NCBI GenBank assembly: GCA_022614955.1
Contig: JAKEHP010000046.1
Location: 1-42,175, forward strand
Length of the DNA: 42,175 nucleotides
Origin: Candidatus Methylomirabilota bacterium
GTDB taxonomy: Bacteria; Methylomirabilota; Methylomirabilia; Methylomirabilales; JACPAU01
Direction: 5' to 3'
Below are positions 6,293 to 15,092 of the stretch, piece by piece. The position numbers and the translations under genes were made by a program. Below the pieces are notes generated by a model. That model did not search any database and was not told where the DNA came from. It saw only the letters and a program-made list of their open reading frames with translations. Every line of letters starts with the position of its first letter. Position 1 is the first letter of the stretch.

Positions 6293-6319
6293 CTAGCACT
6301 CACCATTGGAGAGTGCCAA
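6293..6319 (+). promoter_or_regulatory. CIRCE operator (HrcA binding site)
   Basis: CTAGCACTC-ACCATTGGA-GAGTGCCAA matches the consensus TTAGCACTC-N9-GAGTGCTAA with one mismatch per arm. It lies upstream of groES-groEL. Confidence 0.85.
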
Positions 6320-9540: not shown

Positions 9541-10248
9541 TCAGAAGAAGGGGGCTGCCCGCTCGAGGGCCTCGGCGAGCACACCGGCCAGAACCAGGCC
9601 CGGGAGCATGTTTGCGACCCGGAGGGTGGCCAGGCGCCAGATGTTGACCGCGAGGCACGCGATCATGAGCCCGCCGGCGGCCGTCACCGCCTGCACGACC
9701 GGAGGCGTCATCAGGTCCCGGACGCCGGCTGCCGCCAGGGTCAGGGCCCCCTGGTAGAGGAGAACCGTCCCGGCCGCGAAGTAGGTCCCGAACCCGAGGC
9801 TGGCAGCGAGAGCTGTGGAAGCGATCCCGTCCAGGACCGCCTTAGTGAAGAGCAGCGTGGCGTCCCCCTGGAGCCCGTCCTGGATGGAGCCCAGGATCGT
9901 CATGGGCCCCACACAGAAGAGGAGGCTCGCCGTGACGAAGGCCCGGGCGAACTGGTCGTCCCCTGCACGCGCGAAGCGGCGCTCGAGGCGCTGGCCGAGC
10001 CGGTCCAGGGCTCCCTGGATGTCCAGGGCCTCCCCCAGGACGGCTCCCCCAGCCAGGCTGAGGAGGACGACGATGATCTTGCGCCCGGAGTCAGCCGCCA
10101 GGCCCATCTGCAGGCCGATGAGGAGCGTGACCGCCCCCACGGCCTGCATGGCCACCTCCTGGACGCGGGGCGGGAAGCGCCGCTTGAGGAGGACCCCCAC
10201 CGTACTCCCCACGAGGACCGTCCCGGTGTTAACGAGCGTCCCCAGCAT
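9541..10248 (-). CDS. DUF554 family membrane protein (YqgA-like)
   Basis: 235-aa polytopic membrane protein. MLGTLVNTGTVLVGSTVGVLLKRRFP...LLFCVGPMTILGSIQDGLQGD...ANMLPGLVLAGVL aligns by eye along its length with E. coli YqgA. Confidence 0.8.
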   Translation of the reverse strand: MLGTLVNTGTVLVGSTVGVLLKRRFPPRVQEVAMQAVGAVTLLIGLQMGLAADSGRKIIVVLLSLAGGAVLGEALDIQGALDRLGQRLERRFARAGDDQFARAFVTASLLFCVGPMTILGSIQDGLQGDATLLFTKAVLDGIASTALAASLGFGTYFAAGTVLLYQGALTLAAAGVRDLMTPPVVQAVTAAGGLMIACLAVNIWRLATLRVANMLPGLVLAGVLAEALERAAPFF

Positions 10249-10551
10249 CCCAACTCCCGGTGAAGCGCGAGGCGGCCGCGCCCGCCGCTCCCCGCGGGGC
10301 GACCAACCGCGCCGTCGTTCTCGTTGATTCGGGAGCCCTTGTCAAGGGGATTCGGCCGCAAAATACGCGCGGCCAGGGCGGCCAACACAAGCATCCCACG
10401 CCCGCTCGAGCTCCGTAGGCGGGGTCCACCTAGGCCTTTTCCCGCAAGTCAGCTCACCCCTGCCCCGGCCAGGGGTTCTGAGCCGCGATCCGTAACCGTC
10501 CGCCAGTGGGGCTAACTCCACGCCGCGCTTGCCCCACGGCAATTTTTCCGC

Positions 10552-10580
10552 TTGACTGCCCTCCCCTATGGCGCTACGGT
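10552..10580 (+). promoter_or_regulatory. Weak candidate promoter for the lipoprotein operon (TTGACT-N17-TACGGT)
   Basis: Good -35, poor -10. It would give a ~190-nt leader. Purely a sequence match. Confidence 0.2.
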
Positions 10581-10768
10581 CTCCTCGATCGCGCCGGAAG
10601 GCGAGAAGGTTTTACGGCATGACGGCAGCCAAGTCCTCCGTCCTGTTCTCAAATCCCTCCAAGGTTGCTGCGACCCCCGATCGCAAGTCAAACTTGATCA
10701 ACCTCATCCAGCGATCCCAGGACACACTCCGCGAGCCGAAGGCTGCCGCCCATTCGGCTGGAGAGATC

Positions 10769-11797
10769 ATGTGGGAAGGCAAGAAGTTCTCGACAAAGAC
10801 GTCATGGGTCGCCAGCGCCGGCTTGAGACAGACTGCCCTGGCCCTCTCAATCCTCTTCGTGCTCGCATCTTGTGCCAGTTACGACAAACGGGAAGTCGTC
10901 AGAACTCTCCCCGACTCACCGAGCCCCGCAACTCAGACCCCGAAAGCCCCGCCCGGATCCGCTGATGTTGGCTCCTCGGCCCGCGCGCTGAAACGCAAAG
11001 TGGCGATCGCTCGCTTCACCAACGAAACAAAGTACGGGGCAGGCCTCTTCACCGACCCGAGCTCCGACCGCATAGGGAAGCAGGCCTCGGACATTCTGGC
11101 ATCCGACCTGACCAAATCCGGCAAGTTCATCGTGCTGGAACGGACGGACCTTCACAAGCTCAAAGCCGAAAGCGAGTTGATGGGAATGACCCCCGAGGAG
11201 TTCAAGAAGAACCTCGTCGGGGTAGATGCCCTTATCCTGGGGTCGGTGGTTGAGTTCGGCCGGAAGGACACCGGCGAGGTGCTCCTCTTCACCCGCTCGA
11301 GGAAGCAGGTTGCCCACGCCCGTGTCAGCATTCGGTTAGTCGACCCCAGAACGGGCCAAGTGTTTTTCAGTGAAAGTGGCGGCGGTGAGGCCGCACTCGA
11401 GACGCAGACCATCCTGGGACTCGGCGACCGAGCCGTCTTCGATTCCACCCTGAACGACATGGCCCTGTCTGCCGCGATTGCCAACCTGCTGGACAAGGTG
11501 CTGAATAAGCTGTCCGACAAGCCCTGGACAAGCGGCATCCTTGCGGTAGACGGGACGAACGTCCTGATTGCAGGAGGACAACGCCAAGGCCTCAGGATCG
11601 GCGACCGCCTCAAAGTGATGGTTCCAGGCAAACTGATCAAGAGTCCCCAAACCGGTTTTAACATTCAGACTCCGCATGCCCAGGTTGGCGAACTGGAAGT
11701 CGTAAGCTTCTTTGGAGACGCGGAGACGACCGAAGGCTCGATCTGCCGTGTGGTCAGCGGCGTCACGCCGCGGACGGATCACATCGTTCAATTCTGA
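10769..11797 (+). CDS. CsgG-family lipoprotein with extra C-terminal beta-rich domain
   Basis: Track ORF 10568..11797 trimmed to ATG 10769 (GGAGA 5 nt upstream), so that the signal peptide plus lipobox (LSILFVLAS/C) is N-terminal. The core aligns by eye with E. coli CsgG: VAIARFTNETKYG, KFIVLERTDLHKLKAE, DALILGSVVEFG, VSIRLVDPRTGQVF. About 95 additional C-terminal residues follow. Confidence 0.8.
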   Translation: MWEGKKFSTKTSWVASAGLRQTALALSILFVLASCASYDKREVVRTLPDSPSPATQTPKAPPGSADVGSSARALKRKVAIARFTNETKYGAGLFTDPSSDRIGKQASDILASDLTKSGKFIVLERTDLHKLKAESELMGMTPEEFKKNLVGVDALILGSVVEFGRKDTGEVLLFTRSRKQVAHARVSIRLVDPRTGQVFFSESGGGEAALETQTILGLGDRAVFDSTLNDMALSAAIANLLDKVLNKLSDKPWTSGILAVDGTNVLIAGGQRQGLRIGDRLKVMVPGKLIKSPQTGFNIQTPHAQVGELEVVSFFGDAETTEGSICRVVSGVTPRTDHIVQF

Positions 11798-11810
11798 ACC
11801 GGGGAGGGCA

Positions 11811-12155
11811 ATGGTCTACACCACATCGCGGCGAGTCCTGGCAGTTGCGTGCCTCTTCCTTCTTTCGGGTTGCGGTTTCCTCGCTCCTGTTTTGGGCCCA
11901 GTCTATGAGACATCAACCAGTACGGTGGATCAAACGAAGGACGAAGGATACATCCAGTTCACGAACACGACCAGCGACCACCAGATCTTTCTCGACGGGA
12001 AGCCAATTGGCACCGGCACCGATTATTCATCCGGCAAACTGCTGGCAGTTCCGCCAGGTCCACACCTGGTGGAAATCACCCAAGGCGGCGCCATCGTCTT
12101 GCACCAGAAGGTATTCATCGGGGTAGGCTCAACCCGTGCCATAGACCTCAAATGA
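11811..12155 (+). CDS. PEGA-domain lipoprotein
   Basis: ATG 11811 follows GGGGAGGG. Signal peptide with lipobox LFLLSG/C. The remainder has a PEGA-like pattern (IFLDGKPIGTGT...LLAVPPGPHLVEI...VFIGVGSTRAI). It starts 13 nt after the CsgG-like stop. Confidence 0.7.
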   Translation: MVYTTSRRVLAVACLFLLSGCGFLAPVLGPVYETSTSTVDQTKDEGYIQFTNTTSDHQIFLDGKPIGTGTDYSSGKLLAVPPGPHLVEITQGGAIVLHQKVFIGVGSTRAIDLK

Positions 12156-12514
12156 TGCATGATCCCCCTCGATCGCTTGCCCTGCTCATGTTGCTCGGCT
12201 TAGCCGCGTGCGCCGCTCCTCCCCTTTTTTATTGGGGACAATACGAGGAGAGCCTGTACAAACGACACACGGATCCCAGCGACCAGGGGCAGGGCGAAGC
12301 CTTCAAGATGCTGGAACTGACCATTCAAGAAGCTGAAGCAAAGAACTCCCGAGTTCCGCCAGGTGTCTATGCGGACTACGGCTATCTATTATTCAAGCAA
12401 GGGAAAGTTGACGACGCAGTCGTATTTTTCCGGAAGGAAGCGGAGACGTACAAGGAATCCAAGTACCTGATGGATTCTGTCATCTCCCGAATCGAGAGGA
12501 AGAAAGCTCCATGA
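12152..12514 (+). CDS. DUF4810-like lipoprotein
   Basis: ATGA overlap with the preceding gene. Lipobox LLGLAA/C. A small helical protein (LFYWGQYEESLYK...PPGVYADYGYLLFKQGKVDDAVVFFRKEAETYKES) resembling the DUF4810 family that accompanies DUF799. Family name is from memory. Confidence 0.6.
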   Translation: MMHDPPRSLALLMLLGLAACAAPPLFYWGQYEESLYKRHTDPSDQGQGEAFKMLELTIQEAEAKNSRVPPGVYADYGYLLFKQGKVDDAVVFFRKEAETYKESKYLMDSVISRIERKKAP

Positions 12515-13173
12515 AGATCCTGCGCCCGCTCATGGCCGGAGTGTTCCTGCTCTCCGTGGGGGCCTGCGCAACGGCACCGAAACCAGACTACTCCAGGTTC
12601 TTCGAGCACCACCCCCGGTCCCTAGTAATCGTCCCGGCAATCAATAAGACAACGGCAGTGGAAGCCCCGATCGTTTTCAATACAACGGCGACCAAACCCT
12701 TCGCCGAAAGAGGCTATTATGTCTATCCCGTCTTCCTCACGCGTGACATTCTGAATGATCTCGGCCTTTCGGACGAGGGGCTCATCGCCCAAGCCCAACC
12801 CCAGCGCTTCAGGGAGATCTTCGGCGCCGACGCCGTGCTGTTCGTAACGGTGAACACCTGGGCGACGACCTATGTCGTGCTGGCTTCCTCAGTGACAGTA
12901 GAAGCCAATTATAAGCTCGTGGATAGCGATTCAGGCGAAGTGATCTGGGAACGGACGGAGCGGGTAGTGGAGACGAGTGGAGGTGGTGGGGGTGGTGGTC
13001 TCGGTGGTCTCGTAGCGAGGGCGATTAGTGCCGCCCTCACCGCAATTCTCGTGGACTACCGTCCCCTAGCACGCAAGATGAATACCCTTGCAGTTGACAA
13101 GCCCGGGCAAGGACTCCCGGCAGGTCCCTACCGAAGCGAATACAAGCAAGATTACCCCAACTACCGCCACTAG
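12511..13173 (+). CDS. DUF799 / GNA1162-like lipoprotein
   Basis: ATGA overlap with the preceding gene. Lipobox LLSVGA/C. SLVIVPAINKT...AERGYYVYPV...FGADAVLFVTVNTW...YKLVDSDSGEVIWE, then a poly-Gly segment and a C-terminal helix. This pattern resembles the Neisseria GNA1162 family. Confidence 0.65.
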   Translation: MKILRPLMAGVFLLSVGACATAPKPDYSRFFEHHPRSLVIVPAINKTTAVEAPIVFNTTATKPFAERGYYVYPVFLTRDILNDLGLSDEGLIAQAQPQRFREIFGADAVLFVTVNTWATTYVVLASSVTVEANYKLVDSDSGEVIWERTERVVETSGGGGGGGLGGLVARAISAALTAILVDYRPLARKMNTLAVDKPGQGLPAGPYRSEYKQDYPNYRH

Positions 13174-13376
13174 CCCCCCGCCCCAGTAGGCCGGCAGAAC
13201 TCCCGGACCGTCAGCCCCGAGCCCCCGGTCCACCCCCTCAAGCCACCCTGCGCCGCCTGGACGTCTCTAGGGCGACCAGGAGACGCATCGTCAGCGCAGC
13301 GCGATGGCGCCTGCCAGATTTAGGAAACGGCGGCCCTCTACATGCGCCCCCGGCGGGCATGGTCGGCCGCCTGGCC

Positions 13377-15092
13377 CTACCCGAAAACCCCCCCGAGGCG
13401 GGCCCCGGCGACCCGGTTGACCAGGGCGAGGCTCAGGGCGGCGACGATGATCAGAATGAAGGAGAGGGCGGCGGCCTCGTTCGCGGAGCCGGCGATGTAG
13501 AACGTGAAGATCCCCACGGGAATCGTCTCCCATCCGCCCAGGTTCAGGAAGATCGTCGCGGAGGCCTCCTGGAGGGAGGTCATGAAGGAAAAGAGGGAGC
13601 CCACCAGGATCCCCCTCCAGATCATGGGGAGGGTGATGTCCTTGAAGGTGCGAACCTTGCTTGCCCCCACGCTCCCCGCCGCCTCTTCCAGAGAGCGGTG
13701 GACGAGGAGCAGGGAGGCGAAAGAGCCCCGCACCGTGTAGGGAAGCCGCCGCACCGCTAACACCAGCGGCATGACGATCCAGAGGCTCGTGAGACCGACT
13801 TGCAGCCCGGGCAGCGGCGCGTGGAAGGCCCGGATGTAGGCGATGCCGATGGCCGTTCCCGGGATGGCCAGGATGAGGGTGTTCAGGGCGTCCAGCAGGC
13901 CCCTCCCGGGGGCCTTGGTCCGGGCCAGGATCCAGGCGATAGGGACGCCGACACCGATGCAGATGGCCACCGCCAGGCCGGAGTACAGGAAAGAGTTCAA
14001 AATGTACTTCGGGGTCTCCGCCGTCACGCGGGCGAAGTAGGCGAACGTGTACTGGAGGGGGAAGGGGGTCAGGGACCAGGCCCTGCCGAAGGCGGCTAAC
14101 GTCACCCCCAGGAAGGGGAGAAAGGCCAGGAACAGCAGCAGGCTCAGGAACGTGACCGCCAGGGCCTGCTTCCCCGGGGAGAGGCGGCGGCGCTGCACCC
14201 GGGAGTAGGCCAGGGAGGAGTAGTCCTTGATGGCCACGTACTGCTTGGCCGCCACCAGGAAAACAACCGCCAGCGCCACCATCAGGACGGAGATGACGAT
14301 CCCCATCCGGAAGAGGCGTCGGTCCACGAACTGGACAATGTTGAGATAGGCCTGGGAGGCCAAAAGTTCGTGGACCCCCACCACGAGCGGGGTGGCGAAG
14401 TCGGCGAAGGTCCAGATGAAGACGAGGAGCGCCCCGGCCACATAGCCGGGGGTCGTGAGGGGGAGGGTGATCGTCCAGAATTTGCGCCAGCCCCGGGAGC
14501 CGACCGACTCCGCAGCTTCCTCGAGGCTCGGGTCAATCTTCGCCAGCGCGTCCAGGACGTTCAGGGTGATCATGGGGAAGAGGTGCAGGGTCTCGACCAG
14601 CAGGACCCCGTGGACCCCGTACATGAAATTGATCGGCTGCCGCAGGCCGAGGTAGTCCATCAGGAGGACGTTCACCGTCCCGGCCCGCCCCAGGATGAAC
14701 ACGAACCCGAGCACCCCCACCAGCGGCGGCGAGATAATCGGCAGCAGGGTGAGGTAGGAGAAGAGGCCCCGCCCGGCAAACTCGTAGCGGACCAGCAGGA
14801 CGGCGACCGCGATCCCCACCACCGACGTGGTGAGCACGGTCCCGAACCCGAGGAGGAGGGAGTTCACCAGGGAGCGGAGGTAAAAGGCGTCTGTAAAGAA
14901 CTCCCGGAAGTTCTCCAGGGTGAGGGCGCCGGCGTCATTGGAGAAGGCGTCGTAGAAGAGGCGCAGCAGCGGGTAGAAGAGGGTCAGGAGGAGGAAGCCC
15001 CAGATGGCGGCGAACCCGGCCACTGCGGCGAGGCGGGTCCGGGTGCGCGCCGCGGCTGCCGGGACGGCGGGGAGGGCGACAGGATCGGCCAT
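13377..15092 (-). CDS. ABC transporter permease, fused two-domain (FbpB/ThiP type)
   Basis: 571 aa and about 12 TM segments, with two internal repeats each carrying the EAA-type loop (LEEAAESVGS..., LEEAAGSVGASK). Lies downstream of an ATPase and a binding-protein gene. Confidence 0.85.
   Translation of the reverse strand: MADPVALPAVPAAAARTRTRLAAVAGFAAIWGFLLLTLFYPLLRLFYDAFSNDAGALTLENFREFFTDAFYLRSLVNSLLLGFGTVLTTSVVGIAVAVLLVRYEFAGRGLFSYLTLLPIISPPLVGVLGFVFILGRAGTVNVLLMDYLGLRQPINFMYGVHGVLLVETLHLFPMITLNVLDALAKIDPSLEEAAESVGSRGWRKFWTITLPLTTPGYVAGALLVFIWTFADFATPLVVGVHELLASQAYLNIVQFVDRRLFRMGIVISVLMVALAVVFLVAAKQYVAIKDYSSLAYSRVQRRRLSPGKQALAVTFLSLLLFLAFLPFLGVTLAAFGRAWSLTPFPLQYTFAYFARVTAETPKYILNSFLYSGLAVAICIGVGVPIAWILARTKAPGRGLLDALNTLILAIPGTAIGIAYIRAFHAPLPGLQVGLTSLWIVMPLVLAVRRLPYTVRGSFASLLLVHRSLEEAAGSVGASKVRTFKDITLPMIWRGILVGSLFSFMTSLQEASATIFLNLGGWETIPVGIFTFYIAGSANEAAALSFILIIVAALSLALVNRVAGARLGGVFG

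Follow-up and report, generated by a model that had tools for sequence, protein, structure and literature searches.

Four genes for putative lipoproteins form a compact cassette on a contig of a Candidatus Methylomirabilota bacterium (JAKEHP010000046.1, positions 1 to 42,175; this whole stretch is called the window here). They encode, in order, a CsgG/HfaB-family protein (g1), a small PEGA-like protein (g2), a DUF4810 protein (g3) and a GNA1162-like (DUF799) protein (g4). The cassette lies in a block of ~3.0 kb, and comparison with related contigs strongly supports the conclusion that this block was gained horizontally by a high-GC Methylomirabilales lineage. The cassette type is known, if unexplained, and this locus is an ordinary and well-behaved case of it. 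Taken as a whole, it is best explained, with moderate confidence, as a transferred lipoprotein operon whose CsgG-like product would provide an outer-membrane pore or funnel for a matrix polymer.

The gain is visible at the site itself. A metagenome scan with the DUF554 protein encoded to the left of the cassette identified 12 contigs. In three of them (L087, L090 and L091), the DUF554 gene is found 110–155 nt from the ABC permease gene without the cassette, and the short spacer is intact and holds no remnant of it. The cassette is present at the same site in two contigs from metagenome-assembled genomes (MAGs; L001 and L003) and in L086 and L097. The DUF554/ABC permease site thus shows a presence/absence polymorphism among close relatives: the nucleotide identity of the flanks to the window is 85.8–89.8% for the empty contigs and 88.5–93.9% for the filled ones (88.5–89.1% for L003 and L097), within an overall range of 84–94% for filled and empty contigs together. 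Near-identical contigs (93.9% nucleotide identity over 9.3 kb) are labelled Candidatus Methylomirabilales. Alignment of the empty contigs to the window breaks off after 10326 (L091 and L087) or ~10397 (L090) and resumes at 13359–13376, which bounds the insert at ~3.0 kb. Its left edge is fuzzy (10327 by L091 and L087, ~10397 by L090), and its right edge falls at 13358 or 13375. The insert contains a leader, the four open reading frames (ORFs) and a 185-nt tail, and nothing more. No tRNA gene was found in the window, and the only flanking repeats are chance-level 15-nt GC-rich matches located in native DNA. The cassette-bearing contig L086 lacks ~89 nt of the leader just inside the left junction (window 10378–10465).

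The initial annotation had described this stretch as compositionally foreign, with a lower G+C content and many codons ending in A or T, and the values computed across the window bear this out. The G+C content of the window is 69.8%; that of the insert is 0.598, compared with 0.706 for the remainder, and the four cassette genes range from 0.53 to 0.60. The lowest-GC 3-kb segment of the entire 42 kb begins at 10301. The G+C content at third codon positions (GC3) is 0.735, 0.643, 0.612 and 0.674 for g1 to g4 (z = -5.4 to -9.2), against 0.904 +/- 0.032 with a minimum of 0.82 for the 27 other genes of the window. Synonymous codons ending in A or T are enriched several-fold in the cassette. For instance, GAA/(GAA+GAG) is 0.56 compared with 0.09, and the share of TAT is 0.40 compared with 0.11.

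The origin of the block was approached with a neighbour-joining tree of concatenated g1, g3 and g4 (718 columns, 200 bootstraps). The window and L003 group with 8 Nitrospirales, to the exclusion of 7 Nitrospira, in 188/200 bootstraps; they are placed inside Nitrospirota in 200/200, and a Nitrospirota clade without the window is recovered in only 2/200. The g1 protein shares 69–71% identity with Nitrospirales proteins and 41–45% with those of all other phyla. Nitrospirales cassettes have a G+C content of 0.43–0.58, which the intermediate value of the window cassette fits. Judged from the protein tree, the donor was most likely a Nitrospirales-type bacterium. The empty-site contigs and the nesting of the cassette inside Nitrospirota together strengthen the horizontal acquisition that the initial annotation had proposed.

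After transfer, purifying selection has maintained the cassette genes in their new host. When the window is compared with L003, the ratio of nonsynonymous to synonymous substitution rates (dN/dS) is 0.17–0.28 for the cassette genes and 0.09–0.24 for flank genes; the cassette is therefore kept in working order. In the same comparison, dS is lower for the cassette genes (10769–13173; 0.13–0.25) than for flank genes (0.20–0.35), possibly through codon-composition effects or recent sharing by recombination.

The g1 protein belongs to the CsgG family by sequence and has a two-domain shape like that of FlgT. Its match to Pfam CsgG (PF03783) covers residues 73–251 (1.8e-26, 93.2 bits against a cut-off of 20.8). 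A family profile built from 28 homologues aligned with E. coli CsgG in hhalign (probability 95.5%, E 1.4e-8) and matched only CsgG among PDB sequences (4e-6). The profile was needed for the latter result, since a search of PDB with the single g1 sequence gave no match. In the AlphaFold2 (AF2) model (predicted local distance difference test, pLDDT, 74), the protein has an alpha/beta core with three long strands at 154–172, 175–191 and 198–215 and a long helix at 227–250, and residues 253–342 form a separate all-beta domain. The CsgG-like core with an extra beta-rich C-terminal domain, which had initially been recognised by eye, is thereby placed on a firm footing. When full-length g1 was compared with known structures in Foldseek, the best matches were FlgT (3w1e, 2.4e-12), a chain of the Vibrio LPHT ring (8z5n, 8e-12) and CsgG (6l7a, 1.9e-9), followed at lower rank by GNA1162, PelC (5t0z, 1e-7), HpaA and CT253. 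The C-terminal domain alone gave sub-threshold FlgT_C matches in Pfam (1e-4 to 0.14; 13–23 bits against a cut-off of 27) in 3/5 homologues. Membership of the FlgT family was not obtained: FlgT_C stays below its cut-off, no flagellar genes lie nearby, and FlgT is the top match by fold only. In hhalign, the g1 motif YGAGLF lies opposite the CsgG constriction YPASNF (Tyr51, Asn55 and Phe56), with the Tyr and Phe kept and the Asn replaced by Leu. Thus, a central constriction-type loop is plausibly retained in g1.

For g2, the link to PEGA is indirect. The protein has no Pfam match even at E<=1, PEGA (PF08308) included, and four small homologues of g2 gave no Pfam PEGA match at E<=0.01. A g2 profile (A1) of 15 homologues was then searched against 1.84 billion representative proteins and gave 164 matches, some of them long proteins in which as many as 11 stretches were matched. 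Among these, P0265 (1.6e-30; 11 PEGA repeats), P0272, P0274 and P0276 carry 2–11 PEGA repeats that are confirmed as PEGA by Pfam. By this profile transitivity, g2 reads as a remote homologue that is PEGA-like and falls below Pfam-threshold membership; the earlier description of gene 2 as PEGA-like stands through its family profile but not through a direct Pfam match. The AF2 model of g2 shows a beta-sandwich over residues 45–112 (pLDDT 77–93), and its Foldseek matches are weak ones to transthyretin-like and carboxypeptidase-regulatory domains. Residues 21–46 (11871–11948; CGFLAPVLGPVYETSTSTVDQTKDEG) are near-invariant among homologues and yet predicted to be disordered (pLDDT 50–57), which suggests that they may act as a docking peptide.

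The assignments of the two remaining genes to DUF4810 and DUF799 were both recovered at high significance. The g3 protein matches Pfam DUF4810 (PF16068) over 84/85 profile positions (4.9e-24, 85.1 bits against a cut-off of 34.7), and its best PDB matches are weak ones to consensus TPR proteins (3.7e-4 at best). The g4 protein matches Pfam GNA1162-like (PF05643; 6.4e-40, 137 bits against a cut-off of 25.9) and, over residues 26–174 (149 residues), the crystal structure of GNA1162 (PDB 4hrv, 2.8e-25). Beyond its globular domain, the protein has a poly-Gly stretch as well as a conserved tail at the C-terminus (residues ~156–220). A role for g4 as an LpoB-like activator of penicillin-binding proteins was considered and rejected, as the Pfam E-value is just 0.19. 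Scans of the four cassette proteins gave only noise in NCBIfam and no defence-system match in PADLOC.

The gene layout and lipobox motifs support the view that the four genes form a single operon of outer-membrane lipoproteins (Table 1). The four plus-strand ORFs have the coordinates first assigned to them, with a gap of 13 nt between g1 and g2 and ATGA stop-start overlaps at g2/g3 and g3/g4; because start and stop codons overlap, translation of these genes would be coupled. The sequence GGAGAG is located 5 nt upstream of the g1 ATG (10769), and GGAGG precedes the ATG of g2. Each translation contains a lipobox (LASC, LSGC, LAAC and VGAC for g1 to g4) preceded by a basic n-region and a hydrophobic core, so that the lipobox cysteine noted earlier for each product is present as a motif. 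The g1 lipobox is conserved among homologues. All four products are putative substrates of signal peptidase II. The residues at position +2 after the lipobox Cys are A, G, A and A, with no Asp. Although the longest g1 ORF begins at 10568, the start is taken at 10769 because the lipobox would be buried if translation began upstream. Codon 19 of g1, a TTG in the same frame, offers an alternative start, and the mature protein is identical for every choice. Public calls for near-identical g1 proteins (P0001–P0006) use upstream starts and give 392–414 aa, with the lipobox Cys at about residue 85–102 (85 in the 392-aa call), which is probably a mis-annotation of the start codon. The related MAG contig L003 is annotated with the 342-aa start. 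In the leader, a terminator-like hairpin at 10529–10542 is followed by a T-run, and the sigma-70-like motif TTGACT-N17-TACGGT (10552–10580), which falls below the scan threshold, can only be proposed as a promoter. A sigma-70 scan of the leader found nothing above threshold, and an Rfam search of the leader for regulatory RNA gave no match at E<=0.1.

Table 1. Features of the cassette and its flanks (positions in the window; domain boundaries and protein roles are predictions)
Feature	Position	Strand	Size	Description
DUF554 membrane protein gene	9541-10248	-		Left landmark, native DNA; Pfam DUF554 1.4e-73; GC3 0.91
Inserted foreign block	~10330-13358		~3.0 kb	Defined by empty-site contigs L087, L090, L091
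Cassette leader	10400-10768	+		Terminator-like hairpin and weak sigma-70-like motif; sequence read directly
g1	10769-11797	+	342 aa	CsgG/HfaB-family lipoprotein
g1 Cys35 codon	10871-10873	+		Lipobox cysteine
g1 CsgG core	10985-11521	+		Residues 73-251
g1 FlgT_C-like domain	11525-11794	+		Residues 253-342
g2	11811-12155	+	114 aa	Small PEGA-like lipoprotein; Cys21
g3	12152-12514	+	120 aa	DUF4810 lipoprotein; Cys20; helical, TPR-like
g4	12511-13173	+	220 aa	GNA1162-like (DUF799) lipoprotein; Cys19
Non-coding tail of insert	13174-13358		185 nt	Missing from empty-site contigs
ABC permease gene	13377-15092	-		Right landmark, native DNA; Pfam BPD_transp_1; GC3 0.92

The closest proteins to those of the cassette, 88–96% identical, come from Methylomirabilales MAGs and metagenome contigs, and the next group (65–77% identical) comes from Nitrospira/Nitrospirales. 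Nitrospira sp. M1 carries the identical four-gene set in the same order. In more distant cassettes (~45% identity), the second slot holds an ORF of 97–98 aa that is matched by the g2 profile. A scan of species-representative genomes with the g4 alignment gave 80 loci in Nitrospirota, Alpha-, Beta- and Gammaproteobacteria, Myxococcota, Gemmatimonadota, Binatia and Methylomirabilota, in agreement with the earlier remark that the trio of CsgG-like, DUF4810 and DUF799 genes recurs in other genomes.

These loci fall into two architectures. In type A (long; 46 loci), a CsgG-like protein of ~320–340 aa with the C-terminal domain is followed by a g2-like, a DUF4810 and a GNA1162-like protein; the window cassette is of this type. 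In type B (short; 32 loci), the CsgG-like protein has ~225 aa and lacks the C-terminal domain, and g2 is missing. Profile searches of the loci found the PEGA-like gene in every long-CsgG cassette (46/46) and in no short one (0/32); 5 of the type A g2 genes came up solely in a relaxed search of the gap. This split, in which the PEGA-like gene and the FlgT_C-like domain are gained or lost together, is new here. Because the two always co-occur, the PEGA-like protein is predicted to contact the FlgT_C-like domain of the CsgG-like protein.

Type A cassettes also occur on plasmids, namely pLA5 of Novosphingobium pentaromativorans (L099, NZ_CP009295.1 27024–29433) and pPNAP04 of Polaromonas naphthalenivorans (L100, NC_008760.1 57275–59580), where RefSeq labels the products as CsgG/HfaB family, hypothetical, DUF4810 and GNA1162 family. 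The pLA5 cassette adjoins glycosyltransferases, an outer-membrane beta-barrel gene and kdsA/kpsF/kdsB, and the pPNAP04 cassette adjoins an IS5 transposase and Ter/VWA genes. A type B cassette with 49% identity is carried by a Methylomirabilota MAG (L026). The type B cassettes of ammonia oxidisers (Nitrosospira and Nitrosomonas), of methanotrophs (Methylococcales) and of one MAG each from Methylomirabilota, Nitrospirota and Geobacteraceae have mutually very similar scores (L019, L020, L024–L026 and L031–L043). Cassette exchange among nitrifier and methanotroph communities is suggested.

Across loci, the G+C content of the cassette minus that of its flanks has a mean of -0.021; the difference is negative in 46/70 loci and <= -0.10 in 5. 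The generalisation that the cassette always lies below its host in G+C content is thus only mildly true. Cassettes 10–15 GC points below their flanks are found also in L006–L008 and L012 (Nitrospirales) and L067 (Brevundimonas), and thus even in the order of the putative donor. The cassette may have travelled repeatedly or be AT-biased by nature; this would fit the H-NS repression of the A. baumannii cluster described below.

The absence of a curli subunit, CsgE/F-type accessory protein or other cargo, first noted for the immediate surroundings of the cassette, holds in the window and in related loci. The neighbours on the left encode enolase, alanine racemase, GroES/GroEL, a 163-aa protein and the DUF554 protein, and those on the right encode an ABC permease, ATPase and binding protein, GDPD and glycerol-3-phosphate dehydrogenase; neither a csgA/B substrate gene nor csgE/F accessory genes are among them. 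Pfam confirmed that the two genes next to the cassette are DUF554 and ABC permease genes, unrelated as the initial annotation had it, and both are on the minus strand. When flanking ORFs within +/-6 kb were clustered across 85 loci, no conserved fifth gene or cargo was found. The only clusters shared by more than close relatives were ABC ATPases of a generic kind (11 loci) and proteins with response-regulator/GGDEF-EAL domains (6 loci), and these were rejected as partners since their position and strand vary.

The cassette type is already catalogued, and the window offers a clean further example, not a new kind of system. In A. baumannii UPAB1, the cluster csgG-Ab12600-Ab12605 contains a CsgG homologue and two lipoprotein genes, one of them a GNA1162 homologue, and is repressed by plasmid H-NS, which fits a foreign or AT-rich character (bioRxiv 10.1101/2021.05.19.444899). 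Deletion of csgG or of the middle gene results in less poly-N-acetylglucosamine (PNAG), Cup pili and biofilm; the authors describe the cluster as widespread and uninvestigated, and propose a role like that of the holdfast anchor HfaB (bioRxiv 10.1101/2021.05.19.444899). In Neisseria, GNA1162 is a lipoprotein of meningococcal outer membrane vesicles (OMVs), reported to be surface-exposed by fluorescence-activated cell sorting (FACS), with a TolB/LptE-like fold; it is a studied antigen with no function assigned (PMC6497663). NMB1124 and NMB1126 are present in these OMVs (PMC6338130; PMC6497663), where NMB1126 is listed as a "CsgG family protein" (PMC6338130). Like the window, the A. baumannii cluster and Neisseria NMB1124-1126 have the trio of CsgG/HfaB, DUF4810 and GNA1162-like genes without a curli subunit. 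The A. baumannii cluster differs in having three genes, which makes it type B by gene count, whereas the window cassette has four, is of type A, sits in a host of another phylum, and shows the gain event. Beyond the A. baumannii preprint, no functional study was found in the literature on DUF4810, DUF799 and CsgG homologues. The earlier statement that the trio has no assigned function or cargo therefore holds in that the papers searched define no function for it, but it must be qualified by the A. baumannii deletion phenotypes and by the study of GNA1162 as an antigen.

Several better-known systems share parts of this picture. E. coli CsgG (4uv3 and 6l7a; type VIII secretion) has in common with g1 the PF03783 domain, a lipidated N-terminus (predicted in g1), the alpha/beta core and, in the hhalign register, the Tyr/Phe loop spacing. 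Unlike the E. coli curli system, the window lacks csgA, B, E and F; g1 has ~22% identity to CsgG and an extra C-terminal domain, and the three partner lipoproteins are unrelated. Vibrio FlgT (3w1e and 8z5n) combines an alpha/beta and a beta domain, as g1 does, and is the ring-forming periplasmic partner of FlgP and FlgO. However, its sequence relation to g1 is limited to the sub-threshold FlgT_C match, g1 is itself a predicted lipoprotein, and the LP ring that FlgT surrounds has no counterpart here. Caulobacter HfaB, which can be likened to g1 by description, is a CsgG-family lipoprotein outside curli that is linked to the anchoring of a GlcNAc-rich polymer, but its partners HfaA and HfaD are both absent from the window cassette. 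PelC, PqiC and LptE belong, like g1, to an alpha/beta lipoprotein fold class and include outer-membrane-anchored oligomeric rings that assist transport via another protein. They are of other sequence families, however, and work with defined partner barrels or MCE tubes, whereas no such partner is linked to the cassette.

In the explanation that we favour, a ~3.0-kb block from a Nitrospirales-type donor was inserted into the DUF554/ABC permease spacer of 110–155 nt, a part that is strongly supported. Its four products would be held by their lipids in the inner leaflet of the outer membrane, as the lack of Asp at +2 suggests, and would form one outer-membrane complex around a ring of the CsgG-like protein, lined at its centre by the conserved Tyr-x4-Phe loop. 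The PEGA-like protein would dock on the FlgT_C-like domain, and the DUF4810 and GNA1162-like proteins would act as accessory subunits. The resulting pore or funnel would help to export or anchor an extracellular-matrix polymer made elsewhere. Since the cassette moves alone and without a conserved neighbour, it would act on something common to all of its hosts or on its own subunits; a matrix polymer is preferred because the A. baumannii deletion loses PNAG, pili and biofilm. A number of observations weigh against this account. The matrix-polymer link comes from a single study, made in a distant species with the short cassette type, and the phenotypes seen there could be indirect. Compared with E. 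coli CsgG, whose two transmembrane hairpins build a 36-strand barrel, g1 is shorter by 6 residues in the first (TM1) hairpin region and by 8 in the second (TM2), and the TM1 hairpin of the window lineage is highly charged (RKDTGEVLLFTRSRKQ). Across the CsgG-like proteins of 79 cassettes, R165 and Q180 of hairpin 1 are invariant and K/R178 is conserved, and these residues surround a hydrophobic tip of only 2–3 residues. The best fold matches of g1, FlgT and the LPHT ring, are non-pore proteins, and the register of the constriction loop differs between MAFFT and hhalign. The +2 sorting rule may not be that of the host phylum. The donor tree was made by neighbour-joining and not by a model-based method, and the host labels derive from MAG binning. 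Neither an integrase or recombinase nor a target-site duplication nor terminal inverted repeats were found at the insert that would account for its insertion. The CsgG-type outer-membrane channel of the initial annotation thus stands as a CsgG-family protein by sequence, but its channel is an assumption. Relative to curli CsgG the hairpins are consistently shortened, so the usual label of secretion channel calls for a test and should not be assumed.

The same structural features can be read as a non-pore scaffold, which we regard as less likely but credible. Here the four lipoproteins would be arranged as concentric rings in the periplasm, suspended from the outer membrane through their lipids, similar to the flagellar H-ring (FlgT/FlgP/FlgO) or the rings of PelC, PqiC and LptE. 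They would organise material or funnel it to an unlinked beta-barrel, or stiffen the envelope, and would not cross the membrane themselves. The Vibrio H-ring proteins FlgT, FlgP and FlgO form lipoprotein-anchored rings with no membrane pore (bioRxiv 10.64898/2025.12.02.691832). FlgT and the LPHT chain outrank CsgG in Foldseek, where PelC, GNA1162, HpaA and CT253 match as well, and the weak FlgT_C matches, the shortened and charged hairpins and the alpha/beta fold class that g4 shares with g1 and LpoB all point the same way. By sequence, however, g1 is CsgG and not FlgT, both in Pfam (93 bits) and in the PDB profile search. The Tyr/Phe loop positions are kept in the hhalign alignment, and in the 79 proteins hairpin 2 retains a partial polar/apolar alternation, with a G-F/L-G tip on both hairpins. 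No partner barrel is conserved nearby, and a flagellar context is missing. An improbable but consequential alternative is self-contained surface display, in which the CsgG-like ring would move its own GNA1162-like and/or PEGA-like lipoprotein to the cell surface and no cargo gene would be needed. The cassette transfers and persists alone, as this would predict. The N-terminus of CsgF threads into the CsgG pore, and by analogy the near-invariant disordered peptide after the g2 anchor and the conserved Gly-rich flexible tail of g4 are the kind of segment that could thread a pore. GNA1162 was reported to be surface-exposed by FACS (PMC6497663), although this evidence is old and weak (bactericidal titre 1/4) and the proposal is otherwise purely inferential. 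CsgG passes unfolded chains and not acylated folded lipoproteins, and the short cassette type has no g2. If true, this would be a previously unrecognised surface-lipoprotein export or display system extending from Neisseria and Acinetobacter to nitrifiers and methanotrophs, with the long and short forms as two variants of its mechanics and the four-gene transfer across phyla as a natural demonstration of sufficiency. Finally, the site could have held the cassette ancestrally, with a later deletion in the "empty" relatives, since the flanks of filled and empty contigs are equally far from those of the window in sequence identity and neither a target-site duplication nor an integrase marks an insertion. 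This is highly improbable: the GC3 z-scores of -5 to -9 and the nesting in Nitrospirota at 94–100% bootstrap speak for a foreign origin, the other cassette type with 49% identity is found in Methylomirabilota (L026), and the empty spacers are intact with no remnant. Later loss in some lineages would leave that origin foreign.

The cluster is found in many Gram-negative phyla that include pathogens, where one member is the vaccine-candidate antigen GNA1162 and another affects the biofilm matrix of A. baumannii. The four genes move between phyla as an independent 3-kb unit and stay under selection, so that no cargo gene needs to be linked to them.

Outside the cassette, a CIRCE-like inverted repeat is located at 6293–6319 on the plus strand (CTAGCACTC-N9-GAGTGCCAA), with 2 mismatches to the consensus and 0 expected in shuffles. 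The repeat, presumably the HrcA operator, precedes groES/groEL in a spacer of low G+C content (0.52).

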